Shown: positions 14,983-56,659, numbered from the stretch's first letter. The stretch is 64,000 bases of DNA from an uncultured Candidatus Saccharibacteria bacterium (GCA_964600695.1 CAZRKK010000003.1:22914-86913); one strand, 5' to 3'. Program-made: numbers and translations. The notes: generated by a model not told the origin, from the letters alone.

Positions 14983-15002
14983 ACCAATTATAAATTAATA
15001 AG

Positions 15003-15521: not shown

Positions 15522-15577
15522 TTTAGTTTCTTAATGTGCTCATTTTTTATACTATACCAGATTTAGCTCAAAGCCCC
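15522..15577 (-). promoter_or_regulatory. Conserved upstream element (probable promoter/leader) shared with 16106-16160
   Basis: About 80% nucleotide identity over ~55 nt immediately 5' of the two paralog start codons. The minus strand contains TATAGTATAAAA, a -10-like sequence. Confidence 0.45.
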
Positions 15578-15607
15578 AAGCTAGAGTCGCGAGTAACCTG
15601 CTTTTAT

Positions 15608-16105: not shown

Positions 16106-16160
16106 TTTAGTTTCTTAATACACTTATTTTCTATACTATAGCAGATTTAAGCCCAAATTG
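16106..16160 (-). promoter_or_regulatory. Second copy of the conserved upstream element
   Basis: tttagtttcttaatacacttattttctatactatagcagatttaagccc here, versus tttagtttcttaatgtgctcattttttatactataccagatttagctc at 15522. Confidence 0.45.
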
Positions 16161-16222
16161 CAAAGTTTAAATAAAATAACTGCACGAAAGTGCAGTTATT
16201 TTGGTCACATCTTGATTAAACC

Positions 16223-19432: not shown

Positions 19433-19448
19433 GTAATTCGTTAATGAA

Positions 19449-19949
19449 TTATTTTGTGGACTTTAGGTTTTGAATAACACTAACCTCTAGAATTGATCCT
19501 TTACCTGCAGGATCCTCAGTAGCGACAATCATTAAAATATTGTTGTCTTTAGAAAATAGTGCTGGAGACTTTATTGCCTCTGTATTATTGCGAACCCAAC
19601 CTAAATTTTCAAAAAAGCTAGCATATTTTACTAATGCTTTTTGAGCTGAAAGAGCAGAAGTAAATTTTCGAGTAGACTGAGTACGCCCATCATTCGTGGT
19701 GGATTCGGAGTTTTGCAAAATTTTCCCACCAGATTCACTAGGAAGATTGTCTGGGAATCCTTTTAGAGTCTGAGTTTTATTAACATCTTTAGTTTGAACC
19801 TCAAATTTTGGAGTAGTTTGATCTACTTTAGTAGTGAAGTAGTTTTTTGACCATAAAAACCAAAAAAATCCTGTTAGTATAAGTAACACGATTAAGGCAC
19901 CCACTAATAATTGCTTGTGATTAGTTTTTGGGGATACTGGATTATCCAT
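19449..19949 (-). CDS. Small N-terminally membrane-anchored protein, paralog family member 3 of 4
   Basis: TM anchor LLVGALIVLLILTGFFWFLW, then KGFPDNLPSESGGKILQNSESTTNDGRTQSTRKF...FFENLGW. Confidence 0.6.
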   Translation of the reverse strand: MDNPVSPKTNHKQLLVGALIVLLILTGFFWFLWSKNYFTTKVDQTTPKFEVQTKDVNKTQTLKGFPDNLPSESGGKILQNSESTTNDGRTQSTRKFTSALSAQKALVKYASFFENLGWVRNNTEAIKSPALFSKDNNILMIVATEDPAGKGSILEVSVIQNLKSTK

Positions 19950-20034
19950 TTGAATTTATTTTTGTTTCGATTCCGAAAATTTACTTTTTAATTATAGCAT
20001 AAAAAGATTTTTTTTGCAATAGAACTTTTAAGTT

Positions 20035-20520
20035 TTACTTTGTGAACTCTGTTAAGGTCATTGTAATAACATTAACTTTGTTATTTGGATCTAGAGCTGC
20101 AGAGATTTGTAACAGTTGGTTATCTTTTTTACCAGCAACCATTTTCACATTAGACTGATCTAAGCTATTATTTATTGTCCAACCATTGTCTTTTAAATAC
20201 TTGGTGTAGAGGGTAATATTCTGAGCTAAAGTTTTCTTACTTTCAAATTCGCGAGTAGCATTAAATCTACCGTCTCCTTCAATGGCATTAAAATTACTAG
20301 TCACTACAGCACCTACCTCTGTTGGTAAGTTGACTGGAAACTTGTCGGGCAAGGTACCTTTATCGACTTGGGTAATTTGTACAGGCTTCACCTTTTCGAC
20401 TTTGTTAATTTTTGAATTTGGCTGGAGAGGATAATTTGATAACTGAATTGCTACAAACAGTAAAGCTAGCAATGCAGCCACCATAACTACCATTTTAAAC
20501 ACAGGGTTATTTAGTTCCAT
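20035..20520 (-). CDS. Small N-terminally membrane-anchored protein, paralog family member 4 of 4
   Basis: DKFPVNLPTEVGAVVTSNFNAIEGDGRFNATREFESKKTLAQNITLYTKYLKDNGW. Confidence 0.65.
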   Translation of the reverse strand: MELNNPVFKMVVMVAALLALLFVAIQLSNYPLQPNSKINKVEKVKPVQITQVDKGTLPDKFPVNLPTEVGAVVTSNFNAIEGDGRFNATREFESKKTLAQNITLYTKYLKDNGWTINNSLDQSNVKMVAGKKDNQLLQISAALDPNNKVNVITMTLTEFTK

Positions 20521-20568
20521 TTTAGTTTTGTTAATTTTATTATTTTTTTTTAAACTTCAAATTTAAAT

Positions 20569-21300
20569 TTAGTATTGAGCTCTAGTCTTTGTACGCTTTA
20601 CTTGTAAATAGACTTTTGCGGGACTTAAAGTAGGTTCAGTTTTATTTCTACTATTACTCGAAGGTTTATTAACCAACTGTGAATACTCTGACCACCCTCC
20701 ACCATTTCTTGCCGAAGGTGTGTACTCAACCTTACCTTTACCTACGGAAATTCCAACTCTTGCATCCGAGATTAAGACACCTGCAGGCATTGGTCTAGTT
20801 TGATAATGTAACCATAAGCAATCTGGTATTTTAGTTCTACTACGGGGTGTGGAGTTCTTGCTAGCCCCGCCGCCTAAGCTAGCCCATGATGTCCATTGAA
20901 CAACTGTCTGTTCACCTGTACAATCAGACTTTTTTTCTGCCATGCTGATTCCAATTCTAAAATCTTGTTGATAGATAGCACCATTCAAGGGAGCAGAACC
21001 AACATTACCAGGATCAAAATAGATACTCGCACAGTCTGGATCCTTTGCGTTTTCATCTGTACCATAACTTGAACCACCAGGAACCGCTAAAGCGGATTCT
21101 ACTTCTTGATCTGTGCAATAATGGTCCATTAACGCAACCTTAAAACCTGTTGGAGCTAAAGCAGATGGAGTTGATGTATTCCCAGAGGAAGCATCACTAT
21201 ATTTTGGAGCTAATCTTTTTCCCTGGAACGCGTATGCAGCAGTTCCGACTAATGCAACACCAGCTAATACAAGCACTGGTAATATTAATTTTGGTTTCAT
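20569..21300 (-). CDS. Secreted hypothetical protein (243 aa) containing Cys
   Basis: Signal peptide MKPKLILPVLVLAGVALVGTAAYA. Six Cys. No recognisable domain. Confidence 0.55.
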   Translation of the reverse strand: MKPKLILPVLVLAGVALVGTAAYAFQGKRLAPKYSDASSGNTSTPSALAPTGFKVALMDHYCTDQEVESALAVPGGSSYGTDENAKDPDCASIYFDPGNVGSAPLNGAIYQQDFRIGISMAEKKSDCTGEQTVVQWTSWASLGGGASKNSTPRSRTKIPDCLWLHYQTRPMPAGVLISDARVGISVGKGKVEYTPSARNGGGWSEYSQLVNKPSSNSRNKTEPTLSPAKVYLQVKRTKTRAQY

Positions 21301-21415: not shown

Positions 21416-21922
21416 TTATTCAGCTTTTTCTTCTGCCGATGTTTCGGGAGTTGCTTCTGGAGCGGCTTCTTCTGGCTTGGCTTCTTCAGCAGGAACTTCT
21501 TCTACTGCAACAACCATTTCTGGTTCTTCTGCAGGAGTTGCTTCTGCTGGTGTAGCTTCATCAGCTGGAGTTTCGGTAACAGCTTCATCGGCAGTAGCAG
21601 ATTCAGCTGCAGGTGCTTCTGGTTTAGCTTCTTCAGCTACAACTTCTTTTTTAGGAATAGTGAAAGATTTAGTTTTATCTGCTTTAAGGATTTCCTTAGT
21701 GACAAATAAGTTATGGACTGTAGCAGAGAGTTCAACATGCTGGTCGTTCATCCAGTAATTCAAACGGTCGTTGCTACGAATTCCTAATTCTTTAGTATGA
21801 GGATTGTAAGATCCTAAGATCTCTACAAACTTCTTTTGGTTAGCAGCGGTTTTTTGAGCTAACACTACTTTGTATTGAGCAGTGTTGCGTTTACCACCAC
21901 GTTGTAAACGAATAGTTAACAT
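21416..21922 (-). CDS. rpsP: 30S ribosomal protein S16 with an Ala/Glu/Pro-rich low-complexity C-terminal extension
   Basis: MLTIRLQRGGKRNTAQYKVVLAQKTAANQKKFVEILGSYNPH...NDRLNYWMNDQHVELSATV, followed by ~80 aa of EAKPEAPAAE-type repeats. Confidence 0.9.
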   Translation of the reverse strand: MLTIRLQRGGKRNTAQYKVVLAQKTAANQKKFVEILGSYNPHTKELGIRSNDRLNYWMNDQHVELSATVHNLFVTKEILKADKTKSFTIPKKEVVAEEAKPEAPAAESATADEAVTETPADEATPAEATPAEEPEMVVAVEEVPAEEAKPEEAAPEATPETSAEEKAE

Positions 21923-22039
21923 GGAATATAAAATTATAATAAATTAGAGTTGCTTTACTATTATTTAATCTTGAATTTCGGAGTTCAACGTTTTGACTGG
22001 TAGCTGGTTTGACGGTCCAACATGAGTCCGGATGACTTA

Positions 22040-22080
22040 GAAAATCACTTAATAAAAGTAAAAAGACTTCAATAGTCTAC
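22040..22080 (-). terminator. Bidirectional terminator between smc and rpsP
   Basis: aagacttcaa-tagtctacca-cttgaagtctt, flanked by an A-run and a T-run. Confidence 0.5.
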
Positions 22081-22116
22081 CACTTGAAGTCTTTTTGGTC
22101 AAGGCTGATTTTTTAT

Positions 22117-24750
22117 CTATTTAGCGTAAACCTTGGCTTGATCCATTTTAATAGAAAGTAATTGAGATACACCATCATCACCCATAGTCACTCCATAAAG
22201 AATATTTGCTTGTGACATTGTTTCGCGATTATGGGTAATTGTTATGAACTGAGTAGTCGAAGATAACTTTCCTAGAATTTGCCCGAATCTAATTGTATTG
22301 GCTTCGTCTAAGGCCGCATCAACTTCATCTAAAACTACGAAAGGTGAAGGGAAACAAGTTAATAAACTACATAATAAGGCTATAGATGTTAGAGATCGTT
22401 CTCCACCAGACAACGACTGAATAGAAGATAACTTCTTTCCTGGAGGTGTGGCTTTAATATCTACACCTGCAACAGCTAATGACCCCTTTTCGTATTTAGC
22501 AATAATTTTTTCTTCTGGACGAATATGTTCTTCGGCTTCCTCGGCAGCGATTTCGGCAGCTTCTTCCTTAGCTAACTCTGCATCAGCTTCTGTTAAGTTA
22601 TCTTGAGATTTTACTAAGGACAAATGTGCACGACCTCCATTGAACAACACTCTAAAATACTGTTCGAACTGTTCATTAACTTTATGGAAGGCGGTATTGA
22701 ATTTAGTTTTGATATGTTCATCGAGTTCATCCATAACTGCTCGTAAATCATCCATGCTTTTGTTCAAATCTTTTGTCTGTGATTCAAGATTAGTAAAACG
22801 ACTTTCGGTTTCGTGATACTCCTGAATAGTTAACTCGTCCACTCCACCAATGGATTCAATTTGCTTTCGTAATCTTTGAATCTTATCCGGCAAACTTGTG
22901 TCTGTATTAGTAATTTTAGCCTGCTTAATTATTTCTAAGCGTTCATGCCCAAGGTGGCTAACAATTTCTGCGACTATTCCTTCGGCTTGGGTTTCGTAAC
23001 GAGCTTTTTCTACCTGAAGTTTACTTTCTGAATCACGGATAATACTTAACTCATCTTGTTGCTTTCGAAAATTTTTATCCTCTTCAGCAATAGCTGCTTT
23101 CCAACTATTTTCTGCAGCATAAATTTGATTAAGCTTTTTTTCTAATTGATCTTGCTCTAAAGTTTTACTATCAACTTGATCTTGTAACTTTTTTTCGTCT
23201 TCCATTAATCCTGCAGAAAAACTTTCGTCGGATGTAGCAGAGACTTTTTTTAATTCTAGATCAATTTGCAACTTCTGGTTTTGCAAAGCCACTAACTGAC
23301 TTGTTAAAAATTCTCTACTTAATTTTGATTTAGAATTAACTAGAGCTAAATTACTTAACTCTTGTTGTAGAACATCTTTCTTTTTTGAAAGGTCTTGTAA
23401 TTCTTGCTGTAATTTAATAAGTTTTTGACCAGGACTAACCACTGCTTCATGAGTTGTAGATCGAAACTTATCCCATGAATTAGACAGATCGGTCGCTGCA
23501 TTTAGTACTGGAGAGACTTCTGTGGCTTGATCTAAAATCCCTAGAAAAGTTTTAAAGCTTTGGTCAAAAGAACTAACTTCTTTTTCTACAATCACCCAAT
23601 CTGCCCCTGCAGGATTATGTAAAGTATCTTGTAAATTAGAAATCTGCTGATTAATTTGTTCTATTGAAGAAGTTTGGGAAGCAATCTGTTGCTGGGATTC
23701 GGTAAAATCAGTTTCGGTTTTCGCAATCTGGTTTTCTAGTTCTTTTATTCGCTGATTAATTTTATGCAGTTCGATATTCAAACTTTCGCTATCACCACTG
23801 CTAGTTTGCATACTAGTCATCTTACCTCGCACTAAACTAATTTGTTCTAGTAAGGCATTTTTTTCGTTTTGTAAAATTTGAATTTGTTCTTGAAGTTTTT
23901 TGTAATCCCCTAAAGCTTGTTCGTTATCTTTTTCGTGTTGCTCTATTTTAGTTAAGTGACCAGACATTTTTTGTTCGATCGCTTTTCGTTGTTGCCCAAA
24001 CTCTGCTAGCTTTGTTTCGAGTCCACTAATTTGATCGTTCAAAGACCACCACTGACTTCCGAGGTGTTCTTGAAGATGAACTTTTAATTCTGTTTCAATC
24101 TCGGCACGAGCCTCCATACGTTTTGCTTGACGACGAAGTGATTTCACTCTAGGTTCTAGTTCGGTAAGTAAATCTTCGGCACGCATTAAGTTCTGTGCAG
24201 TTTGTTCGAGACGACGCAGTGTTCGTTCACGTTTTAAGTAATAGGTTTTTACACCACTAGCTTCATCAATTAAATTTTTAATTTCAGTTGGACCAGTCAA
24301 AATCATTTGGTCGATTGTTCCCTGACCAATAACTGTGTAACGAGAAGTTCCAATGTTGCTTTTGAGAACAAGGTCGATGATGTCTAGTAAACGTACTCTG
24401 GTACCATTCAAAAGATATTCACTTTCTCCACTTCGAGTAATACGACGACCGATAGCGACCTCTGCAGCATCTAAGGGAATCTTGTGATCGCGGTTATCAA
24501 ATGTGGCAATAACTTCAGCAAAGCCTGCACGCCCTTTTTTATCACTACCTGCAAAGATAACATCTTCACTTTTTTTACCACGCATAAGTTTTGCACTCTG
24601 TTCTCCAAGTACCCAACGCAAACAATCAGCGGTATTTGATTTACCGCTGCCATTTGGGCCAACAATCGCTGTAATGCCTTGGCCAAATTCTAATGTTGTT
24701 TTTTTTGCAAAGGATTTAAACCCTTGAATTTCTAGTCGTTTGAGATACAT
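22117..24750 (-). CDS. smc: Chromosome segregation protein SMC (compact, 877 aa; no canonical hinge recognisable)
   Basis: N-terminal head: MYLKRLEIQGFKSFAKKTTLEFGQGITAIVGPNGSGKSNTADCLRWVLGEQSAKLMRGKKSEDVIFAGS. C-terminal signature and Walker B: LSGGERSLTSIALLCSLL...VVLDEVDAALDE. Long coiled coils. It lies upstream of rnc, as in the Firmicutes rnc-smc arrangement. Confidence 0.8.
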   Translation of the reverse strand: MYLKRLEIQGFKSFAKKTTLEFGQGITAIVGPNGSGKSNTADCLRWVLGEQSAKLMRGKKSEDVIFAGSDKKGRAGFAEVIATFDNRDHKIPLDAAEVAIGRRITRSGESEYLLNGTRVRLLDIIDLVLKSNIGTSRYTVIGQGTIDQMILTGPTEIKNLIDEASGVKTYYLKRERTLRRLEQTAQNLMRAEDLLTELEPRVKSLRRQAKRMEARAEIETELKVHLQEHLGSQWWSLNDQISGLETKLAEFGQQRKAIEQKMSGHLTKIEQHEKDNEQALGDYKKLQEQIQILQNEKNALLEQISLVRGKMTSMQTSSGDSESLNIELHKINQRIKELENQIAKTETDFTESQQQIASQTSSIEQINQQISNLQDTLHNPAGADWVIVEKEVSSFDQSFKTFLGILDQATEVSPVLNAATDLSNSWDKFRSTTHEAVVSPGQKLIKLQQELQDLSKKKDVLQQELSNLALVNSKSKLSREFLTSQLVALQNQKLQIDLELKKVSATSDESFSAGLMEDEKKLQDQVDSKTLEQDQLEKKLNQIYAAENSWKAAIAEEDKNFRKQQDELSIIRDSESKLQVEKARYETQAEGIVAEIVSHLGHERLEIIKQAKITNTDTSLPDKIQRLRKQIESIGGVDELTIQEYHETESRFTNLESQTKDLNKSMDDLRAVMDELDEHIKTKFNTAFHKVNEQFEQYFRVLFNGGRAHLSLVKSQDNLTEADAELAKEEAAEIAAEEAEEHIRPEEKIIAKYEKGSLAVAGVDIKATPPGKKLSSIQSLSGGERSLTSIALLCSLLTCFPSPFVVLDEVDAALDEANTIRFGQILGKLSSTTQFITITHNRETMSQANILYGVTMGDDGVSQLLSIKMDQAKVYAK

Positions 24751-26933: not shown

Positions 26934-28814
26934 TTAAGCACCTGTGACTTCTTCGGGTAAAACTTCTGTGAATTCTGGAACCTTCTTTTTAGAAGCAGGA
27001 ATGATATCATTTACAATTTCTTCAAACTGATCTTTTTCTAAAGTTTCATCTGCTACTAATCGTTCTGCAATCTTATCTAAGTAACTACGATGTTCAATCA
27101 TTAATTCTGTGGCTCGCTTTTCAGCGTCGCGCATAATACGTCGAACCTCGTCATCAATTTTTTGAGCCACTGATTCACTATAATTCTTTTGTTCACTAAT
27201 ATCGCGACCCAAGAATACGTTAGTATGATTTTCACCAAGAGTAACCGGACCAAGTTCATCACTCATTCCATACTGAGTAATTAAACTGCGAGCCATGCCT
27301 GTAGCTACTTTTAAGTCATTGCTCGCGCCAGTGGTTAACTCTCCGTAAACCAACTTTTCGGCAGCATAACCACCAAGCAAGGCAGCAATCTCATCTAAGA
27401 AACTGCCCTTTGTATGTAAGTGCTTATCTTCAATCGGAAGCTTCATAGTGTAACCAGCAGCACGGCCACGGGATAATACAGTCACCTTATGAATAGGATC
27501 AGATTCAGGTAAAACAGCTCCTACCAAGGCATGACCACCTTCATGGTAAGCAGTACGCTTCTTTTCCTCTGGAGAAAGAATATGACTCTTACGAGATGGG
27601 CCAAGCATAACTTTTTCGATGGCTTCTTTTAGCTCTTCGGTATTGATCTCTTTCTTATTAACTCGAGCTGCTAAAATAGCTGCTTCGTTAATAATGTTAG
27701 CTAGATCAGCACCAGAAAAACCTGGAGTGCGTTCGGCCACAGAGCGGAGGTCAACATCTTTTGCCATTGGCTTATTTTTGGAATGAACTTTTAGAATAGC
27801 TTCACGATCGTTGATGTCTGGTAGATCCAACACAACTTGTCTATCAAAACGTCCTGGACGAAGAAGAGCAGGGTCTAGAACATCAGGACGGTTAGTTGCT
27901 GCTACTACAATTACATTAGTATCTGTTTCGAAACCGTCCATCTCCACCAAGATTTGGTTTAGGGTTTGTTCACGTTCATCATGACCACCACCAAGACCAG
28001 CACCACGTTGACGGCCAACAGCATCGATTTCGTCGATGAACACAATACACGGAGCGTTACGTTTAGCTTTCTTAAAAAGATCACGAACACGACTTGCACC
28101 AACCCCAACAAACATTTCTACGAATTCAGATCCAGAGATATGAAAGAATGGTACATTAGCTTCTCCAGCGACTGCGCGAGCTAATAAGGTTTTACCTACA
28201 CCAGGACTTCCTAACAACAAAACACCTTTCGGAATTTTTGCACCAAGCGCTAAAAACTTTTGTGGAAATTTTAAAAATTCTACAATTTCTGATAATTCTT
28301 CTTTGGCTTCTTTGCTTCCAGCTACATCATTAAAACGAACTTTGTTCTTCATCTCGTCAGACAACTGAACTGAGGACTGACCAAAGGTTAATGCCCGATT
28401 ATTAGAACCTTGTACTTGGCGCATCAAGAAATAAATAAACAAAGCAATCAAAATAAATGGAATCAAAAACGGTAAGATTGTTCCAGCCAAAACTGTTGCA
28501 AACGATGAATTTTTAAATTCAATTTTTACTTTGCTAATTTTATCTGTACTAACTCCACTATCTATAAAGTACTGCGGAATTTCTGTATTACCACCAACTG
28601 TCGAAGATAGTTTGGTATCACTGTCTTTTACTTTGACAGTTAACGCCTCTGGACCTACTGTGATCTGTTCTACTTTTTCGTCTTTAATTAAATTAGTTAT
28701 TTCTGAAAGTGGGACATCTCGCACTTTATCATCACTGATGAAAGCGGCAATACCTACCGAGACAATCAGAAAGACAATTAATACTAATATAATGTTCTTA
28801 ATAATTTTTCCCAT
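26934..28814 (-). CDS. ftsH: ATP-dependent zinc metalloprotease FtsH
   Basis: Walker [21 protein letters not shown] second region of homology, [40 protein letters not shown], and the zinc motif [12 protein letters not shown]. Confidence 0.92.
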
Positions 28815-28830
28815 AATATACTTTAATAAT

Positions 28831-28917
28831 TGGTGCCGGGGAGAGGACTTGAACCTCCACGGGATTGCTCCCGCCAGCTCCTAAGGCTGGTGCGTCTGCC
28901 AATTTCGCCACCCCGGC
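28831..28917 (-). tRNA. tRNA-Leu (anticodon UAG), long variable arm, CCA encoded
   Basis: Reverse complement GCCGGGGTGGCGAAATTGGCAGACGCACCAGCCTTAGGAGCTGG...GGTTCAAGTCCTCTCCCCGGCACCA; anticodon loop CTTAGGA. Confidence 0.85.
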
Positions 28918-28982
28918 ATAAAATAAATAACCAGCATGCACTGGCTATATATTATACTAAATTCTTAGGTTTTATCAAATAG

Positions 28983-29867
28983 CTACCTATTTGTTAAATA
29001 ATTGGTAATTGCCTGCACAACAGCATAAGAAACAATAATGATAGCTAGCCCAATTAGTGCATTTACAAGGGTTTTGCGTCCATTTGTAGATTGAGTTTCG
29101 TTTCCACGAGCTGTCATAAACTGATAACCACCAATTATAATCATGATAACAGCCACAATTCCTGATAATCCAAGTAATATAGAGATAATCGCAGCTGCTA
29201 ATTCTCCTACTGTACCCTTCCCTGCGATACCATCACCGTCACCAAAAGGGTTATCTGGGATACATAAAGGTCCTTTAGAGGTAAAGCCATCCGGACATTC
29301 ACCAGAATCATTTACATTAGAAGTAGAACTGGTATTAGTCTTTTTTGTAGGGGCTACATTTTTTGTGGTTGTAGTACCGGTTTTTGTTGTTCCTGTTGTG
29401 CCAGTACCAGTTGTAGTAGTGCCAGGGTTTATACCTGGAGTAGGTTCGACAGTATCGGTGTTATAAGGGTCTGTTCCAGAAACCTGACTACGATTAATCA
29501 AAGCGACATTATCATAATTTTTTGTGTCATTTTCGTACTTTGCACAAGAAATTTTACCGTTGGTATCTACCCCGTTATAAATTCCGTCTTCACCACCAGG
29601 AATAACATAAGCCAAACAAATTGCTTTAAAATTTGTTGGTACAGAATCTGGTTTTATAGATACAAAACCACCTGGACAAGTTCCTGTTGAACTTGGCCAA
29701 GATACTTCTCCATCATTAGCATTCAAACATAACTTGGAAACCATACCAACCAAAGCATGAGCCGGTTGCGCAGGGGTTAATACCAACAACAAACTAGCCA
29801 ACAAGCTAACAGAGATAAATCCAAAAACAGAAATTTTAATACTGGTTAACAAAGTCTTAGAAGACAT
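28983..29867 (-). CDS. TrbC/VirB2-like pilin-domain protein, paralog 1 of 7 (signal peptide, Thr-rich linker, C-terminal two-helix pilin module)
   Basis: Signal: MSSKTLLTSIKISVFGFISVSLLASLLLVLTPAQPAHA. Linker: GTTTTGTGTTGTTKTGTTTTKN. C-terminus: AAAIISILLGLSGIVAVIMIIIGGYQFMTARGNETQSTNGRKTLVNALIGLAIIIVSYAVVQAI. Confidence 0.6.
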   Translation of the reverse strand: MSSKTLLTSIKISVFGFISVSLLASLLLVLTPAQPAHALVGMVSKLCLNANDGEVSWPSSTGTCPGGFVSIKPDSVPTNFKAICLAYVIPGGEDGIYNGVDTNGKISCAKYENDTKNYDNVALINRSQVSGTDPYNTDTVEPTPGINPGTTTTGTGTTGTTKTGTTTTKNVAPTKKTNTSSTSNVNDSGECPDGFTSKGPLCIPDNPFGDGDGIAGKGTVGELAAAIISILLGLSGIVAVIMIIIGGYQFMTARGNETQSTNGRKTLVNALIGLAIIIVSYAVVQAITNYLTNR

Positions 29868-30313
29868 TAAGATTGATTTGTTAAGAAACGGTAAACTACT
29901 TGAACTATGATATAAGACAAAACGATTATAGCTAAACCAATAAGTGCGTTGACTAAAGTTTTACGTCCAGCCTTAGCGGTTTCGTCATTACCGCCAGCGT
30001 AAATATATTGGTAACCACCGTAGATGACAAAGATAACGGCGACAATTGCAGAAACATACAAAGCAATATCTATTACTCGCTTAGCTAAACCTTCTGGGGT
30101 CGCATCCTTATCGACAATTGTTTCTGGGAAAGCTTCGCTAATGGAGTCTAACCCATCTTGAACTCGGTCACCACTTGAAGAGGTGGAAGTTGATGTTGCG
30201 GGGTTAGTAGAAGTCTGAGCATCAACACTAGATAATGGTAACCAAGCAAAAATAGTTACAAACACCACCGTCATTATTATATTTAGACCAATTTGTTTTA
30301 TCGACTGCTTCAT
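29867..30313 (-). CDS. TrbC/VirB2-like pilin-domain protein, paralog 2 of 7
   Basis: C-terminus: DIALYVSAIVAVIFVIYGGYQYIYAGGNDETAKAGRKTLVNALIGLAIIVLSYIIVQVVYRFL. The stop overlaps the start of paralog 1. Confidence 0.6.
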   Translation of the reverse strand: MKQSIKQIGLNIIMTVVFVTIFAWLPLSSVDAQTSTNPATSTSTSSSGDRVQDGLDSISEAFPETIVDKDATPEGLAKRVIDIALYVSAIVAVIFVIYGGYQYIYAGGNDETAKAGRKTLVNALIGLAIIVLSYIIVQVVYRFLTNQS

Positions 30314-30411
30314 AATTAAATATTAATTAAATAATTCTGGAGGGAAAATTAATAAATTTTGCCCCCAGAATTACCCCGCATACTAACTACTGCTAAATGC
30401 GGGATAAAGAA

Positions 30412-30867
30412 TTAGGTACCGAATACACCGCCACCAGTGCTACCACCGGATACAAAACGGTAAACGATTTGAACAATTACGTATGATAGTACGATAATTA
30501 CCACACCGATCAAAGCATTAAAGATTGCCTGACGGCCTGCTTTAGCACTTTCTTCATTACCACCGGCGAGAATGTAACGAAAACCACCGTAGATCAAGAA
30601 GATAACTGCCAAAATAAATCCTAATGCTAATGCCCAGTTAATAACTGTGACGAAGATTTCGCCAAGTCCACCTTCGTTACAACGAACACCGGTTTCTTCT
30701 GGACAGTCGTCAACAAACTGGTCAATCAATTGAGCGTGACCAACTTGAGGAGCCAACATCAAAACAGGAGCTAAAGCGATACCTAAAGTAAGGCTTACTG
30801 TAGCAATCCCTTGTACCACTGTTTTAAAATTTAGATTTTTTAATATTTGTTTCAAATTTCTCACCAC
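30412..30867 (-). CDS. TrbC/VirB2-like pilin-domain protein, paralog 3 of 7
   Basis: C-terminus: NWALALGFILAVIFLIYGGFRYILAGGNEESAKAGRQAIFNALIGVVIIVLSYVIVQIVYRFV. Confidence 0.6.
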   Translation of the reverse strand: MVRNLKQILKNLNFKTVVQGIATVSLTLGIALAPVLMLAPQVGHAQLIDQFVDDCPEETGVRCNEGGLGEIFVTVINWALALGFILAVIFLIYGGFRYILAGGNEESAKAGRQAIFNALIGVVIIVLSYVIVQIVYRFVSGGSTGGGVFGT

Positions 30868-31015
30868 CCTTCTGCTTTGAGCTTTTATACTCTTATCGCT
30901 TGTGCGAGTTACTGAGATTTATGCTATAAATTAGCAGAAAATCATTAACTATATTGTACTATAAATTTTGGTTTATTCAAAATAAAAACAAGGTTAGCCT
31001 TGTTTTTAAAATGTT

Positions 31016-31531
31016 TTAGAAAATTTGATTATCGACCACTAGATTAACGACTATTGTCACAATGGTTGTGGCTATAATAGCTATGGCAATCCCTGCAATT
31101 GTGTACATAATTATGTTCTTGCCTTTTTTTGTCTGTGTCTCATTCTCTCGAGCCGTCATATACATGTAGCCACCATAGATCAACGAAATTACTGCGCCTA
31201 AACCTAGAATATAGTACAACCAGTAAACAATTTTTTTATAAACTTCTCCTTCGGAACAATATTTTGGTAACTCACCAGCTCTTCCCCCACCATTGGCTTC
31301 AATCTGAGCTTGAAGACCATCACAGCCCCATGTATCAACTTCTGTATCAGAAGTGTTGGTAGGTTTATCTACCTTTACTGGATCCGCGGGTTTAGTTTTT
31401 GGGTTTGAGGTAGTTGCAGGAACGGGAGGTTTTGTGTTTTGTGCATTGACCACAAATGGTAAAAACATAGTCAATCCAATTGCCAGACTTACAAAAATTT
31501 TTAGAGATAATTTTTTTATAGAAAAAGACAT
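31016..31531 (-). CDS. TrbC/VirB2-like pilin-domain protein, paralog 4 of 7
   Basis: C-terminus: YYILGLGAVISLIYGGYMYMTARENETQTKKGKNIIMYTIAGIAIAIIATTIVTIVVNLV. Confidence 0.55.
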   Translation of the reverse strand: MSFSIKKLSLKIFVSLAIGLTMFLPFVVNAQNTKPPVPATTSNPKTKPADPVKVDKPTNTSDTEVDTWGCDGLQAQIEANGGGRAGELPKYCSEGEVYKKIVYWLYYILGLGAVISLIYGGYMYMTARENETQTKKGKNIIMYTIAGIAIAIIATTIVTIVVNLVVDNQIF

Positions 31532-31541
31532 TATTTATTTT

Positions 31542-32417
31542 TTAACTGATAATACTTTGAACAATTGCCACTATACTAAATGACATTAAACTAATTACTA
31601 GTCCACCAATTGCCCACATTATAGAACGCTTGCCTTTTGTAATCTTAGTTTCGTTACCATTAGCTGTAACCAAATTGAAGCCCCCAGCAATAATCACTAG
31701 AACAGAAACCATTGCAGCTAGCATTAAAAGAATATTAATTAGTCTGATGATTAATTCTGGTAGAGTTTCGAATTCCAAAGGATTAGAAAAAGTTCCTAAA
31801 ACCGTATCAAAGCTGGCACCTGGAATCACATCAGCTACGGAATTAATTTGATCGTTCGATAGCCCTGCACCTCCCGAAGCTCCACCATCAGTGCTACCAC
31901 CACCTCCGGTGTCTGTGCCTCCACCAGTTCCCGTGCCTGTTCCAGAGCCAGTGCCTGTTCCGGTTCCTGTCCCAGAACTACCAGATTTATTACGAGCAGT
32001 TGCTGCTGCAGAAGAATTCCTTAAACTGTTAGAAATTTGCAAGCTAGTTATCGCTGCTTGTTCGTATTGATTACTAGTAAGTTGATATTTTGCGGAAGCA
32101 ATAATTCCAATCTGAGTTTGTAATTCTACAAGCAGCTTATTATCAGTAGCCTTTCCTATAGCTGCTGTAACAAAGCCATTACAAATATCTAATTGTGATC
32201 CTCCGCTTGAATAGTCTTTCCGCGATATGTCTCCTCCTGCTTTTTGGCAAGCATTGACTGCTTGGGAAATTAATTGCTTCTCTGTTTCTGTAAACTTAGC
32301 GTTTACAAAATTTGCTGATAACCCAAATACTAACAAAACAACAGACACAGACATAAACAAAACAACGATTTGTTTAACAAAAGATTTGGCTATGCTATCA
32401 AAGTAATTAACTCTCAT
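31542..32417 (-). CDS. TrbC/VirB2-like pilin-domain protein, paralog 5 of 7 (Gly/Thr/Ser-rich low-complexity linker)
   Basis: Linker: GTGTGTGTGSGTGTGTGGGTDTGGGGSTDGG. C-terminus: INILLMLAAMVSVLVIIAGGFNLVTANGNETKITKGKRSIMWAIGGLVISLMSFSIVAIVQSI. Confidence 0.55.
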   Translation of the reverse strand: MRVNYFDSIAKSFVKQIVVLFMSVSVVLLVFGLSANFVNAKFTETEKQLISQAVNACQKAGGDISRKDYSSGGSQLDICNGFVTAAIGKATDNKLLVELQTQIGIIASAKYQLTSNQYEQAAITSLQISNSLRNSSAAATARNKSGSSGTGTGTGTGSGTGTGTGGGTDTGGGGSTDGGASGGAGLSNDQINSVADVIPGASFDTVLGTFSNPLEFETLPELIIRLINILLMLAAMVSVLVIIAGGFNLVTANGNETKITKGKRSIMWAIGGLVISLMSFSIVAIVQSIIS

Positions 32418-32443
32418 TATTTTATTTAAGTTTTATATTTTAT

Positions 32444-33388
32444 CTAAAGTAAACTTTGAACTATATTAACCATAGCGAACGCTCCAACAGAAACAATTAA
32501 ACCAACGACGGCCCACAAAATAGTAGTTTTTGATTTTTTGACAGTGGTTTCGTTGCCGCCATTAAAGACTAACATGATTCCACTAATTATGATTACAATT
32601 GTTGCTACCATTGCAATTATCATCAAGGTCCAATTAATCAATTTTGTTACTAGTTCGGATACATCATTTAAACCGCTAGGGTTTTTGATGCTCAAAGCAC
32701 CTTCCCAGTCAACTCCATCATAACTTCTAGCAACATATTCTGCCTGTTCTTTTTGTGCTGTTGCTACGGCTGTAGCTGCCGCTGCTTTAGCTGTTAACTC
32801 TGCACGTTTTTGGTCTGCGGCCGCTTGGGCTATTTGTTTAGCTTTGGCGTCTGGAGTTCCCTTTTTTAATTCAGCAGCATAAACCTTGTTATACTCTGTC
32901 TTCACCTGTGCTTCTATCTCGGCCAAAGCTTTTTTCTTAGCAGCCTCATCTGTAACAGAAGTTGAAGAATTAGTAGAAGTAGTCCCTGTAGTACTAGCGA
33001 CTTTTGTGTTAGAAGTAGTAGACGAAGTTTTATTAGTAGACGAAGTTTTATTAGTAGACGAAGTTTTGGTTGTGGATGTCTTTTTCGTTGTAGATGAAGT
33101 TTTAACACCTCCATAAGCTTGGCCTTTTATTCCACCACCAGCTGCTTGAGAAACACCACCACCAGCTGCTTGTCCACGGATACTTCCCACAGCTCCGACA
33201 CCACTACCACCCATACCAGCCGTCCCACCAACCTGAGCATTGCTAAATAATGGTTTCTTGGCGTAAGCATCTATGAAACCTAAGGCTGCACCACCTAAAA
33301 TTAATCCTGCTAAAAAAGCATAAACCACTTGGCGGGTTAGAAGTGCTACTTTAATAGAAAGTGTCGACTTAGTTTGAATAGATTTCAT
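32444..33388 (-). CDS. TrbC/VirB2-like pilin-domain protein, paralog 6 of 7
   Basis: The N-terminal ~130 aa are near-identical to paralog 7 and include KTSSTN repeats. C-terminus: INWTLMIIAMVATIVIIISGIMLVFNGGNETTVKKSKTTILWAVVGLIVSVGAFAMVNIVQSLL. Confidence 0.6.
   Translation of the reverse strand: MKSIQTKSTLSIKVALLTRQVVYAFLAGLILGGAALGFIDAYAKKPLFSNAQVGGTAGMGGSGVGAVGSIRGQAAGGGVSQAAGGGIKGQAYGGVKTSSTTKKTSTTKTSSTNKTSSTNKTSSTTSNTKVASTTGTTSTNSSTSVTDEAAKKKALAEIEAQVKTEYNKVYAAELKKGTPDAKAKQIAQAAADQKRAELTAKAAAATAVATAQKEQAEYVARSYDGVDWEGALSIKNPSGLNDVSELVTKLINWTLMIIAMVATIVIIISGIMLVFNGGNETTVKKSKTTILWAVVGLIVSVGAFAMVNIVQSLL
32984..33340. repeat. Direct repeat copy A (~357 bp), near-identical to 34013-34350; contains three copies of an 18-bp unit attagtagacgaagtttt, versus two in copy B
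   Basis: Read directly from the sequence as a long exact match; the boundaries are uncertain by about 2 nt. Both copies encode the shared N-terminal ectodomain of pilin paralogs 6 and 7. Confidence 0.8.
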
Positions 33389-33411
33389 GGTAAATATTTT
33401 GTGGATTGGTC

Positions 33412-34392
33412 TTATTTTCCTGGCTCTGTTGTTGGCTTTTCTGGGGTACCTTGAGTTTGAGTAACAGGTTTTGGAGCAGGATTAATTTCTGATTGTGGAG
33501 TATTGCCTTCGTTAATGTATTCTTTTGGATTACTTAAGATCAACGCACCATTGCGAATGCCAATATTTAATGAGCCAGCCAACAATGAGTTAACCAAAAC
33601 GAAAGCTACTGCAACTAAGACTAATCCAATCACTGCACCGGTTAATCCCTTTTTCGCTTTGGTTAATTCGCTTTGGTCAGATTCTTTAGCCGGTAGAGTT
33701 CCTTGGGATGCAACCATACGAACACCATTAATAATGATAAACAACACCGCTATTAAACCAGCCATAGAAATTAGATAATTGATGATTATGATCAACGTTC
33801 TAAATAGATGGGTAATGTTGCAAGGTGTGTCTACTGTGTTACCGCAAATTACAAAACCAGAAGCCCCACTCTCATCAACTGCCTCTCCTGTAGAGGTATT
33901 TAAATTACCTGGTTTTTTTGCCTGAGCTGCTGCTTCTTGAGCCTTCGGTGTTGTGGCTTTACCACCTCCTTCTTGAGGTTTTGTAGTGGAAGAAGATGTA
34001 GTACTTGTTGTTCCTGTAGTACTAGCGACTTTTGTGTTAGAAGTAGTAGACGAAGTTTTATTAGTAGACGAAGTTTTGGTTGTGGATGTCTTTTTCGTTG
34101 TAGATGAAGTTTTAACACCTCCATAAGCTTGGCCTTTTATTCCACCACCAGCTGCTTGAGAAACACCACCACCAGCTGCTTGTCCACGGATACTTCCCAC
34201 AGCTCCGACACCACTACCACCCATACCAGCCGTCCCACCAACCTGAGCATTGCTAAATAATGGTTTCTTGGCGTAAGCATCTATGAAACCTAAGGCTGCA
34301 CCACCTAAAATTAATCCTGCTAAAAAAGCATAAACCACTTGGCGGGTTAGGTAAGTAATCTTTGTATTTAAGATGGTGTTACTTTTTTTCAT
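33412..34392 (-). CDS. TrbC/VirB2-like pilin-domain protein, paralog 7 of 7
   Basis: C-terminus: LISMAGLIAVLFIIINGVRMVASQGTLPAKESDQSELTKAKKGLTGAVIGLVLVAVAFVLVNSLL. The N-terminus is duplicated from paralog 6. Confidence 0.55.
   Translation of the reverse strand: MKKSNTILNTKITYLTRQVVYAFLAGLILGGAALGFIDAYAKKPLFSNAQVGGTAGMGGSGVGAVGSIRGQAAGGGVSQAAGGGIKGQAYGGVKTSSTTKKTSTTKTSSTNKTSSTTSNTKVASTTGTTSTTSSSTTKPQEGGGKATTPKAQEAAAQAKKPGNLNTSTGEAVDESGASGFVICGNTVDTPCNITHLFRTLIIIINYLISMAGLIAVLFIIINGVRMVASQGTLPAKESDQSELTKAKKGLTGAVIGLVLVAVAFVLVNSLLAGSLNIGIRNGALILSNPKEYINEGNTPQSEINPAPKPVTQTQGTPEKPTTEPGK
34013..34350. repeat. Direct repeat copy B (~338 bp), matching 32984-33340
   Basis: See copy A. Confidence 0.8.
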
Positions 34393-35711
34393 TAAAATAA
34401 TTTTTGTTGTACTAAACTACCTGCCTGGCTTTGTGCTTTAGATAATGCACTGCTAGTTTTTTGCCCGCGAAATAAAATATTTTCTATTACATCACCAATC
34501 AAGGCATCAAACTTTTGCTCATCAACTTTATAAAAAGATTTAGCGGTTAAGTTAGCATGAGCAAACACACCGATTTCTAAATCTTGAGTCTGCAATTCTA
34601 TAAGATCACGGCGAGATGACGGCTGTTTGTCTTTTGCATAGTAGCTATCCAAAACTTTGGAACTAGTAGCGAACTTCAAAAAATCCCAAGCAGCGTCACG
34701 AGTCTTTCTGTCGACACTGGCCTTGCTTACCACTTCTCCAAAGTAACTCGCAAAATTAACATTTGGTTGAGACAAATCATATTGAGGAACAGGAGCCACA
34801 TCATAATTTAAATTTGGAGCCTTTGCATCAATCTGAGCTCGTGTATAACTATAGCCATATAAAAAGGCTGCCCTACCATTAGCAAATGCGTCGGTGGAAT
34901 AATCACTATCAGAATTCCATGTGTAGTTTTCACTGTTTGGATTAGCAAACGATGTATAAAAATCTACTGCTGTAATGCCAGGGTTAAAGCTTTTTCCGTC
35001 CTTCTGAATATTAGATGCAAATCGTGGACTACGTCCATCGTTAGACCATGGAACTGCTCCAGCTTGTAGCATCATTAAGTAAACAACATCAACGGCTCTA
35101 TTTACATTTTGGTAAGTTCCAATCGCAACACCACTGCGATCAAAGTAACCATCTTCACTTTGACTAGCAATTTTTCTAGAATCAATAGCAAGTTGATCCC
35201 ATGTAGTCGGAGGAGTCGCAATACCAGCGGTACCCATAATATCTTTATTATAGTAGAGAGCAAGTGAATCTACCCACAAGGCAGTACCGTAAACTTTATT
35301 ATCACGAACGAAGTCGGCATAGACCACATCAACAAAGGCATCTTTATATTCTTTGAGTGTGTAAAGTTTATCTGGTGCAGGGGTCACTTTGTCCAAATAT
35401 TCTGGTAACCAAGTATTGTTTATAGAAAATATATCCGGACCATTACCTGCAGCCAATGCATTGATTAAATCAGTTTCGTAGTTCTCTATATTTTTCTTGG
35501 TGTATTCAATTGTTACATTAGGATGAGCTTTTTTGTAAGCTTGAATAAGAACTCCCATTTTATCGCTATCAACAAATGGCTTCCAAATTTTTATAGTGAC
35601 CTTTCCTGCCTTAGTATTGCCACCACCGCAACCAGCAGAAAGTAAAATCAAACTACCTATCACCAACGCGAAAGTGAATTTTTGTAAAATAGATTTTTTA
35701 TTATTTTTCAT
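34392..35711 (-). CDS. ABC transporter substrate-binding lipoprotein (extracellular solute-binding protein family 1, sugar-type)
   Basis: Lipobox LLSAGCGGG. Start of the mature domain: KVTIKIWKPFVDSDKMGVLIQAYKKAHPNVTIEYT...GPDIFSINNTWLPEY. No permease or ATPase gene is adjacent. Confidence 0.75.
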   Translation of the reverse strand: MKNNKKSILQKFTFALVIGSLILLSAGCGGGNTKAGKVTIKIWKPFVDSDKMGVLIQAYKKAHPNVTIEYTKKNIENYETDLINALAAGNGPDIFSINNTWLPEYLDKVTPAPDKLYTLKEYKDAFVDVVYADFVRDNKVYGTALWVDSLALYYNKDIMGTAGIATPPTTWDQLAIDSRKIASQSEDGYFDRSGVAIGTYQNVNRAVDVVYLMMLQAGAVPWSNDGRSPRFASNIQKDGKSFNPGITAVDFYTSFANPNSENYTWNSDSDYSTDAFANGRAAFLYGYSYTRAQIDAKAPNLNYDVAPVPQYDLSQPNVNFASYFGEVVSKASVDRKTRDAAWDFLKFATSSKVLDSYYAKDKQPSSRRDLIELQTQDLEIGVFAHANLTAKSFYKVDEQKFDALIGDVIENILFRGQKTSSALSKAQSQAGSLVQQKLF

Positions 35712-35774
35712 TTTTGTTTCGATTAAAACTTTTGACTACTCTCTTTTAATTTCACTTTTTAGAAAATATGTATT

Positions 35775-36680
35775 CTAAACTTTTAGCTTTTTTAAAAATT
35801 CCGCAAAATCGTCATGTAAGTCTTCGTGCTTCAATCCAAATTCAACTACTGCTTTTATATATTCAAGTTTATTACCACAATCGTAATATTTTCCATTTTG
35901 AATTTCAATAGCGTAACAGTCTTTATTTTGTTCTAATAAAATATTTACTCCATCAACATATACCAATTCGTCTGGAGTATTTTTTTCTTCATGGCGACGC
36001 ATTGACTCCTCTAAAGCAGGGAAATAATCGGAGCTAAATAACATACCAGACACCACTGCACAATGCTCGTTTTCTAACGGTCTCCCAGGTTTCTCTACTA
36101 TTTGATCGATTTTTAATGCCCCTTCTCCTACTTTAGCCCCAGCCGCATACCCATATCTCTTATAATCTTGAGGGTTTTTAGCATTCAGACCGGCCAAAAT
36201 AGCACTGCCACCATACTTTTCGTAAGCATCTATTAATTGTTGGCTTCGTGATGGAGAAGCCTCAAAGACATCATCACCCCAAAGCACTAAAAATGGCTCA
36301 TCCCCAATGATTTGGCGGGCATTCCAAATCGGAGTCGCGTTTCCTAAAGGACCTTTTTGACGAACATAGTAAAAATTAGCCATTTCGGCAATTCTGCGGA
36401 TTTCTTCTAATTGTTCAATCTTTCCAGACTCTTCTAAACGCTTTTCAAGTTCAAAAGGATAATCAAAATGGTCTTCGATGTTACGTTTGTGCCAGCCAGT
36501 TACCAAAATAATGTCTTCTATCCCAGCAGAAACAGCATCTTCTACTACATATTGAATAATTGGCTTATCAACCAAGGGTAACATCTCTTTTGGTTGAGCT
36601 TTGGTTGCAGGTAAGAATCTTGTTCCAAAACCTGCTACAGGAATAATGGCTTTTCGTACTTTCTTTTGCATATAAAACAA
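35775..36680 (-). CDS. galU: UTP--glucose-1-phosphate uridylyltransferase
   Basis: KAIIPVAGFGTRFLPATKAQPKEMLPLVDKPIIQYVVEDAVSAGIEDIILVTG. Confidence 0.85.
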   Translation of the reverse strand: MFYMQKKVRKAIIPVAGFGTRFLPATKAQPKEMLPLVDKPIIQYVVEDAVSAGIEDIILVTGWHKRNIEDHFDYPFELEKRLEESGKIEQLEEIRRIAEMANFYYVRQKGPLGNATPIWNARQIIGDEPFLVLWGDDVFEASPSRSQQLIDAYEKYGGSAILAGLNAKNPQDYKRYGYAAGAKVGEGALKIDQIVEKPGRPLENEHCAVVSGMLFSSDYFPALEESMRRHEEKNTPDELVYVDGVNILLEQNKDCYAIEIQNGKYYDCGNKLEYIKAVVEFGLKHEDLHDDFAEFLKKLKV

Positions 36681-36692
36681 TTATATCATATC

Positions 36693-38303
36693 TTAAGTTG
36701 TATTAATTATACGATATTGTAAACTTTCTGCCAAATGAGATGTTTGTATATTCTCTTGGTTCTCAATGTCGGCAATTGTTCTAGCAACTTTCAAAATTTT
36801 TGCAATTGAACGTGCGGAAAGTTGGTAATTATCCGCGGCTTGTTGTAGCAACTTATCTGCATCTTCCGGTAAGCTACAATATTTTTTTAAATCTGCACTG
36901 GTCATCTCACTATTTGTTTTTGTTTCAAGTTTCTTATCTGATTCGTGATGGGAGAATCTTTGTTTTTGAATTTGTCTGGCAGAATTTACAACTGTCCTTA
37001 ACTCCATAGATGTTTGCATCGGTGGTGGTAAGGATAATGACGATGGACTCGTAATCTTGAGTTCATCATATTTTAATCTAGGAACATTAATATGTAAATC
37101 GATTCTATCCAATAATGGACCAGAAATCTTTTTGTTATAGCGCAAGACTTCTGAAGGATGACAAATACAATCCAATAATGGATCTCCGTAATTACCACAA
37201 TGACATGGATTTTGAGCCGTTACTAAAATAAACTTTGCGGGGAATGTAATATTTCTTTGAGCTCTATTGATTATGACTTTATGTTCTTCCAATGGTTGTC
37301 TTAAAACTTCTAATACTTTTCTGGGAAACTCTGTCAGTTCATCTAAAAATAACACCCCGTTGTGTGCCAAACTTATTTCTCCTGGACGGGGTTTTCCACC
37401 TCCACCTATTAACGCCAAACTAGATGCAGTGTGATGCGGAGACCGAAATGGTCTGGCTGTTACAACAGAAGATGTGTAGTTACTACTATCTTGATTAACA
37501 GACAACCTCCCAGCCAGACTATACAAATTAGTTGTCTCTAAAATTTCTTGTTCGGTAAGATCTGGTAAGATGCCAGCCAAAGCTTTAGCTAACAATGTTT
37601 TACCACTACCAGGTGGTCCTACCATTCTAATGTTATGAGATCCACTGGCTGCAATAACCAAAGCCCGCTTAGCTATAAACTGACCAGAAATTTCCGCAAA
37701 GTCTACTTCAACCATATTATTAGTATCAGTGTTGATTGATGATGTAGAGGAATAAGTATGCGGCAAAGTTTTTACCTTTTTCTCCTGCAAAAAACCCTTG
37801 CCTGTTAAATGACTTACTATAGATTCCAAACTAGTTACCTCAAAAATTTTTAACCCTTTAACTAGACTAGCTTCTTGGTCATTGTTTTGCGGGACAAAAA
37901 CTTCCTTTATTCCAGCTTGTTTTGCAGCTAAAACCATTGATAACACACCACTAGCTGGCCTCACACTGCCATCCAAAGCTAGTTCGCCAATAAACATTTT
38001 ATGGCTGGGATTAAATGCAATCAAACCATCGGCTAGTAGAATAGATAAAGCCAGCGCCAAATCAAAGTGACTACCAATTTTTGGCAAATCTCCAGGAGCA
38101 AGATTTATAGAAATTCTCGAAGCAGGATAAGAGTAACCACTATATTTAATTGCGGCTCTAACTCTCTCACGACTTTCTTGAACTATGGTGTCAGGTAAAC
38201 CAACCACAATAGTAACTGGCAAACCATTACTAACGATAGTCTCGATCTCTACGAGGCTTGCTTGGTAACCATTTGGGGTAGCGGTAATTATTTTAGGTAT
38301 CAT
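36693..38303 (-). CDS. comM: YifB/ComM family Mg-chelatase-like AAA+ ATPase
   Basis: N-terminal Lon-like domain, Walker A GPPGSGKTLLAKALAGILP, Walker B VLFLDELTEFPRKVLEVLRQPLEE, and a C-terminal ChlI-type domain. Confidence 0.85.
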   Translation of the reverse strand: MIPKIITATPNGYQASLVEIETIVSNGLPVTIVVGLPDTIVQESRERVRAAIKYSGYSYPASRISINLAPGDLPKIGSHFDLALALSILLADGLIAFNPSHKMFIGELALDGSVRPASGVLSMVLAAKQAGIKEVFVPQNNDQEASLVKGLKIFEVTSLESIVSHLTGKGFLQEKKVKTLPHTYSSTSSINTDTNNMVEVDFAEISGQFIAKRALVIAASGSHNIRMVGPPGSGKTLLAKALAGILPDLTEQEILETTNLYSLAGRLSVNQDSSNYTSSVVTARPFRSPHHTASSLALIGGGGKPRPGEISLAHNGVLFLDELTEFPRKVLEVLRQPLEEHKVIINRAQRNITFPAKFILVTAQNPCHCGNYGDPLLDCICHPSEVLRYNKKISGPLLDRIDLHINVPRLKYDELKITSPSSLSLPPPMQTSMELRTVVNSARQIQKQRFSHHESDKKLETKTNSEMTSADLKKYCSLPEDADKLLQQAADNYQLSARSIAKILKVARTIADIENQENIQTSHLAESLQYRIINTT

Positions 38304-55619: not shown

Positions 55620-55743
55620 TTATCTAAAAATATGGTTTAATTATAGGTTCTCCAAGTGCCGCTGAGGAGTTCATTTAGTTGCAACGCATATTGCCTAGCA
55701 ACTGCATTATAGCGGTTATTTTCAAAACTTTCCTGGAGGAAAT

Positions 55744-56592: not shown

Positions 56593-56659
56593 TCATCTAA
56601 ACTGATGATGATTCCGCCAATGTATGAAAATATGTTGGCGGATTTTTTTATACAAAAAA

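Follow-up and report, generated by a model that had tools for sequence, protein, structure and literature searches.

Tandem genes for small exported proteins related to the VirB2 pilin have been reported in Patescibacteria by several groups. [quoted passage not shown] A series of pilins encoded inside the T4SS cluster of S. epibionticum was found to be essential (Wang et al., 2023; PMC10633639). VirB2-like pilins (PF18895 and PF04956) were then described in 1948 VirB4-containing assemblies, with a pilin gene near virB4 in 1135 of the 1948 and not in about 40%; 441 VirB2 arrays of 2-11 genes, averaging 25% identity, were recorded, and adaptation to different hosts was suggested (Quinonero-Coronel et al., 2025; PMC12102498). 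The legend of Fig. S9 in that study assigns a ring to arrays near virB4, so that, as far as the legend goes, unlinked arrays may be under-reported; among the entries of its Table S1 is one Doudnabacteria genome with VirB4. A 2025 review considers a T4SS pilus in Patescibacteria an intriguing possibility (PMC12857230). Few features of the Patescibacteria envelope have so far proved essential for an epibiotic life, and VirB2-like arrays are one of them. Here we analyse such an array, seven consecutive genes (p1 to p7) at positions 28983-34392 of a 64,000-nucleotide stretch of DNA, hereafter the window, deposited as part of an uncultured Candidatus Saccharibacteria bacterium (GCA_964600695.1, CAZRKK010000003.1:22914-86913).

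We find that the locus is a real array of the kind already described in Patescibacteria and calls for no new category. The initial annotation of the window had put it forward as a candidate new system, a reading that fails in view of the published arrays of 2-11 divergent VirB2-like pilins (PMC7427843, PMC10633639, PMC12102498, PMC12857230). What is new here is a housekeeping site that is fixed in the whole clade and lies away from any T4SS gene, the positional orthology of the array members, and their division into some with conserved and others with fast-changing ectodomains. Open reading frame (ORF) calling confirmed the seven proposed paralogous genes, with exact coordinates and all on the minus strand. 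They are numbered starting at the FtsH side, and bit scores refer to PF18895 unless stated otherwise:

p1, 28983..29867, minus strand: 294 aa; FtsH-proximal; signal peptide, beta-rich head with four Cys, Thr/Gly-rich linker, CPxGFxxKGPLC and PF18895 hairpin; 34.3 bits
p2, 29867..30313, minus strand: 148 aa; short PF18895 pilin-like protein; 39.2 bits
p3, 30412..30867, minus strand: 151 aa; short PF18895 pilin-like protein, small ectodomain with two invariant Cys; 39.7 bits
p4, 31016..31531, minus strand: 171 aa; PF18895 pilin-like protein; 39.4 bits (TrbC family PF04956, 21.9 bits, below its cut-off)
p5, 31542..32417, minus strand: 291 aa; long Gly/Thr-repeat ectodomain, then PF18895-like hairpin; 24.1 bits (below the gathering score)
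p6, 32444..33388, minus strand: 314 aa; Ala/Lys-rich ectodomain with Thr repeats, then PF18895-like hairpin; 25.6 bits (below the gathering score)
p7, 33412..34392, minus strand: 326 aa; SBP-proximal (next to a solute-binding protein gene), divergent PF18895 member; CGN..PC before helix 1, longer loop and C-terminal tail of ~55 aa; 34.0 bits

All seven proteins matched the T4SS_pilin family PF18895 in hmmscan (E-values 5e-10 to 4e-5). The gathering score of this family, 26.6 bits, was passed by p1, p2, p3, p4 and p7 (34.0-39.7 bits), and p5 and p6 lay 1-2.5 bits under it, the match covering 60-66 of the 71 model positions. Array proteins from 22 related species matched PF18895 at E<=0.01 without exception (131/131), as did the positional orthologs of p5 and p6, and 44 of the 131 also matched the TrbC/VirB2 family PF04956 at E<=0.01 (best 1.6e-7), which supports a remote TrbC/VirB2 kinship. 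Homologs carry the public names "pilin", "Type IV secretion system pilin" and "VirB2 component (pilin)". For p3 we retrieved 175 homologs; every homolog listed carries PF18895, some are named "pilin" or "Type IV secretion system pilin", and residues C55 and C63 of p3 are invariant. The family is very large, since a profile of p3 orthologs matched 47,550 cluster representatives among 1.84 billion at E<=0.001. These profile matches identify the C-terminal module as a TrbC/VirB2-like T4SS pilin hairpin, as had been surmised. Among the p3-profile matches, P0157 and P0161 carry 5-6 (up to 8) PF18895-like hairpins in tandem within a single ORF, behind one signal peptide; such "poly-pilins", of 300-900 aa with linkers of about 25-30 aa, bear on the question of hairpins as membrane oligomers.

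The C-terminal modules are 27-51% identical to that of p1, with the consensus ..GG[YF]..(T/A)..GNE...K.GK...A.IGL.. The view that all seven proteins end in this module holds for the alignment as such and needs correction for p7, which has no GG[YF]...GNE motif, carries a 7-aa insertion in the loop and continues for about 55 aa beyond the second helix; p6 has its own version of the motif, ISGIM..GGNE. Hydropathy profiles revealed an N-terminal signal-like segment and two C-terminal hydrophobic helices in each of the seven proteins. Read directly from the N-termini, the p1-p7 leaders end in small-x-small triplets (AHA, VDA, GHA, VNA, VNA, AYA and AYA, in this order). The leaders are of the Sec type: no class III signal peptide of type IV pilins (G/FTLIE-type) was present in the seven N-termini, and the proteins had no match in the Pfam families of type IV pilins. 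AlphaFold2 (AF2) models of p3 place the hairpin helices at residues 68-100 and 105-140 (pLDDT ~90). The p1 model has a head at about 41-135 (pLDDT ~90), a disordered linker at 139-188, and helices at 220-252 and 257-293. Common to the p1 orthologs are a four-Cys head with invariant Cys, a linker that is disordered and rich in Thr/Pro and, ahead of the hairpin, a CPxGFxxKGPLC loop. No PDB match was found for the p1 head, and a profile search with the p3 family gave 0 matches among PDB sequences. In a fold comparison the array hairpins resembled thousands of other hairpins; the fold is generic and allows no separation from them.

The conservation of the locus was assessed in a comparison anchored on FtsH, with 80 species-level loci retrieved. 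A hidden Markov model of the seven hairpins detected 5-9 matching ORFs in about 50 of the 80 loci, always upstream of FtsH. The order nucleotidyl-transferase (NTP-transferase), SBP, 5-8 pilin genes, FtsH recurs in about 50 related species, where the SBP and NTP-transferase genes are usually present, and the SBP-array-FtsH order was seen in most relatives with sufficient flank. The SBP lipoprotein and the tRNA-Leu had been correctly noted as the flanks of the array; the description of the former as an orphan has to be revised, as it is conserved beside the array in relatives and is not incidental. Among 38 complete arrays, 14 have five copies, 13 have six, nine have seven and two have eight. 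The best match of a given protein occupied the corresponding place in the other array in 47 of 56 loci for p1, 38 of 56 for p2, 40 of 56 for p3, 33 of 56 for p4 and 31 of 55 for p5, and a p7-type protein was SBP-proximal in 35 of the 38 complete arrays. This positional orthology, together with the p7-type protein at the SBP end, indicates that the paralogs are ancient, ordered and each retained. Such individual conservation argues for distinct structural roles rather than redundancy, and speaks against a cassette that expanded recently or is being shuffled; on comparative grounds, the paralogs are probably old and non-redundant.

The array and its neighbours have the layout of an operon, with these further features:

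SBP_bac_1 lipoprotein gene, 34392..35711, minus strand: Pfam E 1.7e-29; its stop overlaps the p7 start
nucleotidyl-transferase gene, 35775..36680, minus strand: Pfam NTP_transferase, upstream of the SBP gene
tRNA-Leu(tag), 28831..28917, minus strand: found by ARAGORN, Rfam tRNA 55.5 bits; lies downstream of the array and has a promoter-like site of its own
terminator-like hairpin after p1, 28948-28927, minus strand: from a promoter/terminator consensus scan
terminator-like hairpin between p4 and p3, 31008-30983, minus strand: consensus scan only; a promoter-like site, 30980-30953, follows
promoter-like site before the nucleotidyl-transferase gene, 36734-36706, minus strand: best of the scan, 11/12 positions matched to the consensus
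exact 300-nt direct repeat, 34044-34343 = 33034-33333, no strand assigned: 5' coding parts of p7 and p6, 100% identity

As expected from the initial annotation, the genes overlap or abut: p1/p2 and SBP/p7 overlap by 1 nt, and the remaining gaps are 10, 23, 26, 98 and 148 nt. The terminator-like and promoter-like pair, a consensus match only, divides the array into p7-p4 and p3-p1, and this split coincides with the boundary between the variable-ectodomain and the conserved-ectodomain groups. An Rfam scan of 28000-37000 detected no structured RNA except the tRNA. The p3-p2 spacer (30313-30412) contains a GC-rich hairpin, CCCGCAT...ATGCGGG, without a T-tract. In most array genes no Shine-Dalgarno sequence is recognisable upstream of the start. 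No ABC permease or ATPase genes adjoin the SBP_bac_1 lipoprotein gene.

The two groups differ in the pace at which their ectodomains change. Those of p1, p2 and p3 can still be recognised in relatives whose FtsH identity has fallen to about 78%; for p4-p7 this is mostly impossible past the closest relative (FtsH 94% identical), so the predicted turnover of ectodomains between strains was borne out as fast for p4-p7. The genome GCA_044227685.1 (locus L001), which with Logan contigs also contains the exact p2 protein, is 97-100% identical to the window from FtsH through the p5 hairpin. Over the p5 ectodomain (32034-32483) the two are only 34-43% identical, and a strain ~90% identical overall retains 62-86% identity over the same interval. 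From this pattern, we read the p5 difference as an allele swap by recombination. The N-terminal regions had been described as mutually unrelated, which is wrong for p6 and p7: owing to the exact 300-nt repeat, the two proteins are nearly identical in the leader and over the first ~100 residues of the ectodomain, with 89% identity over the first ~91 aa. The p6 ortholog of L001 (235 aa) has no such p7-derived 300-nt segment, and contigs of related strains end or begin at the repeat. Tandem repeats occur in p5 (31891-31967, coding for Gly/Thr) and p6 (33014-33104, 18-nt units), and the copy number of the 18-nt repeat, which codes for KTSSTN, differs between p6 and p7. Recognisable domains appear in the ectodomains of some relatives (L050:8178-9413 and L016:6161-7384), namely PG_binding_1 (E 3e-13) on an FtsH-proximal member and the FN3-like Pur_ac_phosph_N on a middle member. 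Rapid, recombination-driven change limited to a subset of ectodomains makes p4-p7 natural candidates for determinants of host specificity. A separate difference between the two genomes lies between smc and rpsP, where L001 has a 1.36-kb insertion (L001:15764-16960 versus window 21922-22117) that is absent from the window and codes for a protein of 398 aa whose N-terminus is zinc-ribbon-like.

The window is housekeeping chromosome, with genes for FtsH, SMC, RNase III, RecA, FtsK, IF-2, RNase Y, TrmD, a ComM-like protein, LspA and others. Its closest genomes are metagenome-assembled Patescibacteria labelled Candidatus Doudnabacteria or auto-labelled "Candidatus Saccharibacteria"; judged by sequence, the host is a Doudnabacteria-like member of the Patescibacteria, with an ultrasmall genome. 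The G+C content of the array (0.38-0.39) equals that of the flanks and is even across the window. A mobile island at the tRNA-Leu was ruled out by this even G+C and by synteny, and on the same comparative footing we regard the locus as a vertically inherited chromosomal operon, not a tRNA-Leu island.

We consider it reasonably probable that p1-p7 are VirB2-like pilins, or pilin-anchored subunits of the surface, which serve a T4SS whose genes lie elsewhere in the genome and whose host is contacted by the variable ectodomains. What the sequences show is homology, topology, the operon layout, deep synteny, positional orthology and the replacement of ectodomains between strains, whereas cleavage of the signal peptide, dependence on a T4SS, polymerisation and binding to the host are inferred. 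Each protein would be exported by Sec, its predicted leader being cleaved at an AxA-type site, and would settle in the membrane as a helical hairpin with the N- and C-terminus outside and the short basic GNE..K/R loop inside. A VirB4-driven T4SS of the Gram-positive type, encoded elsewhere, would then draw on this membrane pool and polymerise it into a pilus-like or channel-associated surface structure, a step suggested because of the analogy with the essential T4SS pilin series of Saccharibacteria. The short p2-p4 would be core subunits, and in the long p1 and p5-p7 the hairpin would serve to expose N-terminal ectodomains for contact with the surface of the host cell, those of p4-p7 presumably diversifying quickly by recombination.

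Several observations weigh against this reading. None of the seven proteins reached the PF04956 gathering score of 27.9 bits (best p4 21.9, p1 20.1, p6 17.1 and p2 14.9 bits), and scores with NF045849, a pilin-like family of Mycoplasma integrated conjugative elements (ICE), were 20.0-32.4 bits across all seven, with none at the cut-off of 40 bits. A Pfam scan covering most ORFs in the window that are 110 aa or longer, among them unannotated ORFs of 1069, 398, 366, 318 and 243 aa, contained no VirB4, VirB3, VirB6, TrsD, VirD4 or relaxase. T4SS families were likewise absent from the called genes and their Pfam hits in the 10 kb that adjoin the window on its right, and from the flanks of the syntenic arrays of relatives. 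In no Patescibacteria has a pilus made up of PF18895 proteins been seen (PMC12857230). Finally, four of the seven subunits bear ectodomains of 150-200 aa, which may not fit easily into a VirB2-type filament.

The search for secretion genes bears on the initial annotation as well, which had reported no VirB4, VirD4 or VirB6 within 10 kb: with no VirB4-type family in the scanned ORFs, the absence of an adjacent ATPase is true for at least ~29 kb on each side. A Walker A screen for non-window proteins in 215 large ORFs of 85 related loci returned four only, all from distant lineages. In four relatives, five large ORFs intervene between array and FtsH, and by Pfam none of them was T4SS-like. In the terms used for the published arrays (PMC12102498), the locus has seven consecutive VirB2-like genes, where at least two with PF18895 or PF04956 matches, in tandem or with a single non-pilin gene between them, define an array in a Patescibacteria genome, and it has no VirB4 family match within the 20 coding sequences that count there as near.

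This separation from T4SS genes, both in the window and in all syntenic relatives, could instead mean that the hairpin is a C-terminal membrane anchor only. The array would then encode surface proteins, binding modules on stalks, which together with the SBP lipoprotein would stay on the epibiont membrane without T4SS extraction or polymerisation. The start/stop overlap that makes the array co-operonic with the SBP lipoprotein gene agrees with this, as do the long stalk-and-head ectodomains, the PG-binding and FN3-like domains in relatives, the single ORFs of 5-6 fused hairpins, which look more like a membrane-resident assembly, and the generic fold of the hairpin. Nevertheless, the sequence-profile kinship is to TrbC/VirB2, the best-conserved members are the short p2-p4, which have almost no ectodomain to display, and the homologous Saccharibacteria series is essential and sits inside a T4SS cluster. 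On balance, an anchor-only role, although the main rival, appears unlikely to us.

In the Doudnabacteria-like clade, the operon of SBP and pilin genes might also encode an autonomous, T4SS-independent surface apparatus, in which PF18895 hairpins would self-assemble, within the membrane or on it, into a ring, tube or filament with variable binding heads and act with the SBP in host contact and nutrient capture. The single ORFs with 5-6 fused hairpins would fit the membrane oligomer that this model requires. We regard it as a decidedly speculative possibility of low probability; if true, it would be a host-contact and nutrient-capture device independent of T4SS.

A further reading takes up the diversified pilin cassette of the initial annotation: the locus would be a diversity-generating system whose copies are exchanged to vary the surface, giving antigenic or phase variation. 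The exact p7-to-p6 copy of 300 nt, the 18-nt and Gly/Thr-coding tandem repeats, the p5 ectodomain allele replaced between near-identical strains and the copy number of 5-8 among species all speak for it. However, all seven genes are complete and possess a start and a signal peptide of their own; no silent cassettes were seen, the search not having extended to inverted repeats; and no recombinase family occurs among the Pfam hits of neighbouring ORFs. The variation is found between strains and species and is not programmed within a genome, and the array is an ancient, ordered operon whose order and positional orthologs have been kept across about 50 species. We therefore find an antigenic-variation cassette improbable and did not retain that proposal.

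That the proteins are exported by Sec and released by a T4SS as soluble effectors or subunits of a toxin, on the ptx/ptl analogy drawn for TM7x, was proposed for the 4-6-protein array of Saccharibacteria (McLean et al., 2020; PMC7427843), but every member keeps two strongly hydrophobic helices and the PF18895 match, and later papers reinterpret such arrays as pilins (PMC12102498, PMC10633639, PMC12857230), so that we hold this to be very improbable. Least credible of all is a remnant of an ICE at the tRNA-Leu, to which the adjoining tRNA and the weak NF045849 matches might point, but which is contradicted by the same SBP-to-FtsH locus in about 50 species, by G+C equal to that of the flanks, by the absence of integrase, relaxase and T4SS genes among the scanned window ORFs, and by a tblastn search of p2 against 72,556 plasmids that gave no match.

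Other loci in the window deserve a brief account. A second cluster of paralogs, at 13786-21300 on the minus strand, comprises four membrane-anchored proteins of ~165 aa (15003-15521, 15608-16105, 19449-19949 and 20035-20520) that share an LPxKFPxNxPxExG...GW domain and belong to no Pfam family. The four flank a secreted repeat protein of 1069 aa (16223-19432) with a weak fn3 match, and at the low-coordinate end of the cluster lies a secreted protein of 398 aa (13786-14982) with no Pfam match. A free-standing LAGLIDADG-like ORF (63111-63800, minus strand; PF14528, E 5e-10) is located between tRNA-Leu(gag) at 63017-63103 and tRNA-Val(tac) at 63875-63951. The cumulative GC-skew minimum and a switch of gene strand from minus to plus fall at ~55600-57600, some 22 kb away from the array. 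A dnaA gene was not found in the window, and since DnaA boxes are not enriched (19 found versus 19 expected), the turn of the GC skew near 56-58 kb does not qualify as an origin.

Returning to the reading of p1-p7 as VirB2-like subunits serving a T4SS, we compared them with four known systems. The Mbov_0395-family pilin-like conjugal transfer protein (NF045849) is alike in that the hairpin module of each of the seven proteins covers almost all of its 80-residue model, and unlike in the scores, 20-32 bits against a cut-off of 40, and in the ICE context, which the window does not have. With the TrbC/VirB2/TraA pilins of PF04956 (T-pilus, F-pilus, RP4) the window proteins share a long leader, a hairpin of two helices joined by a short loop that is polar or basic, and a profile similarity that is weak but recurs. 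In classical pilins the mature protein is about 65-75 aa long. By contrast, the window proteins score below the PF04956 threshold and have mature N-terminal extensions of 30-210 aa, and the window has seven paralogs versus one major pilin, a monoderm host and no adjacent VirB genes.

Tandem, divergent VirB2 copies are also found in Bartonella and Anaplasma phagocytophilum, where they are thought to broaden host interaction or evade immunity (cited in PMC12102498). Those copies sit within virB operons of diderm intracellular pathogens, whereas the window paralogs are ancient and position-specific across ~50 species. The T4SS arrays of Patescibacteria (SEML1_0006-0019 of S. epibionticum ML1, the "Sec-secreted array" of TM7x and the 441 arrays) come from the same phylum as the window array. 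They too consist of tandem genes for a signal peptide and a PF18895 hairpin, in 2-11 copies with low inter-copy identity, and are chromosomal, with no relaxase. The window array differs from them in lying outside a T4SS cluster, between an SBP lipoprotein gene and tRNA-Leu/FtsH, and in the 150-210-aa ectodomains of four of its members.

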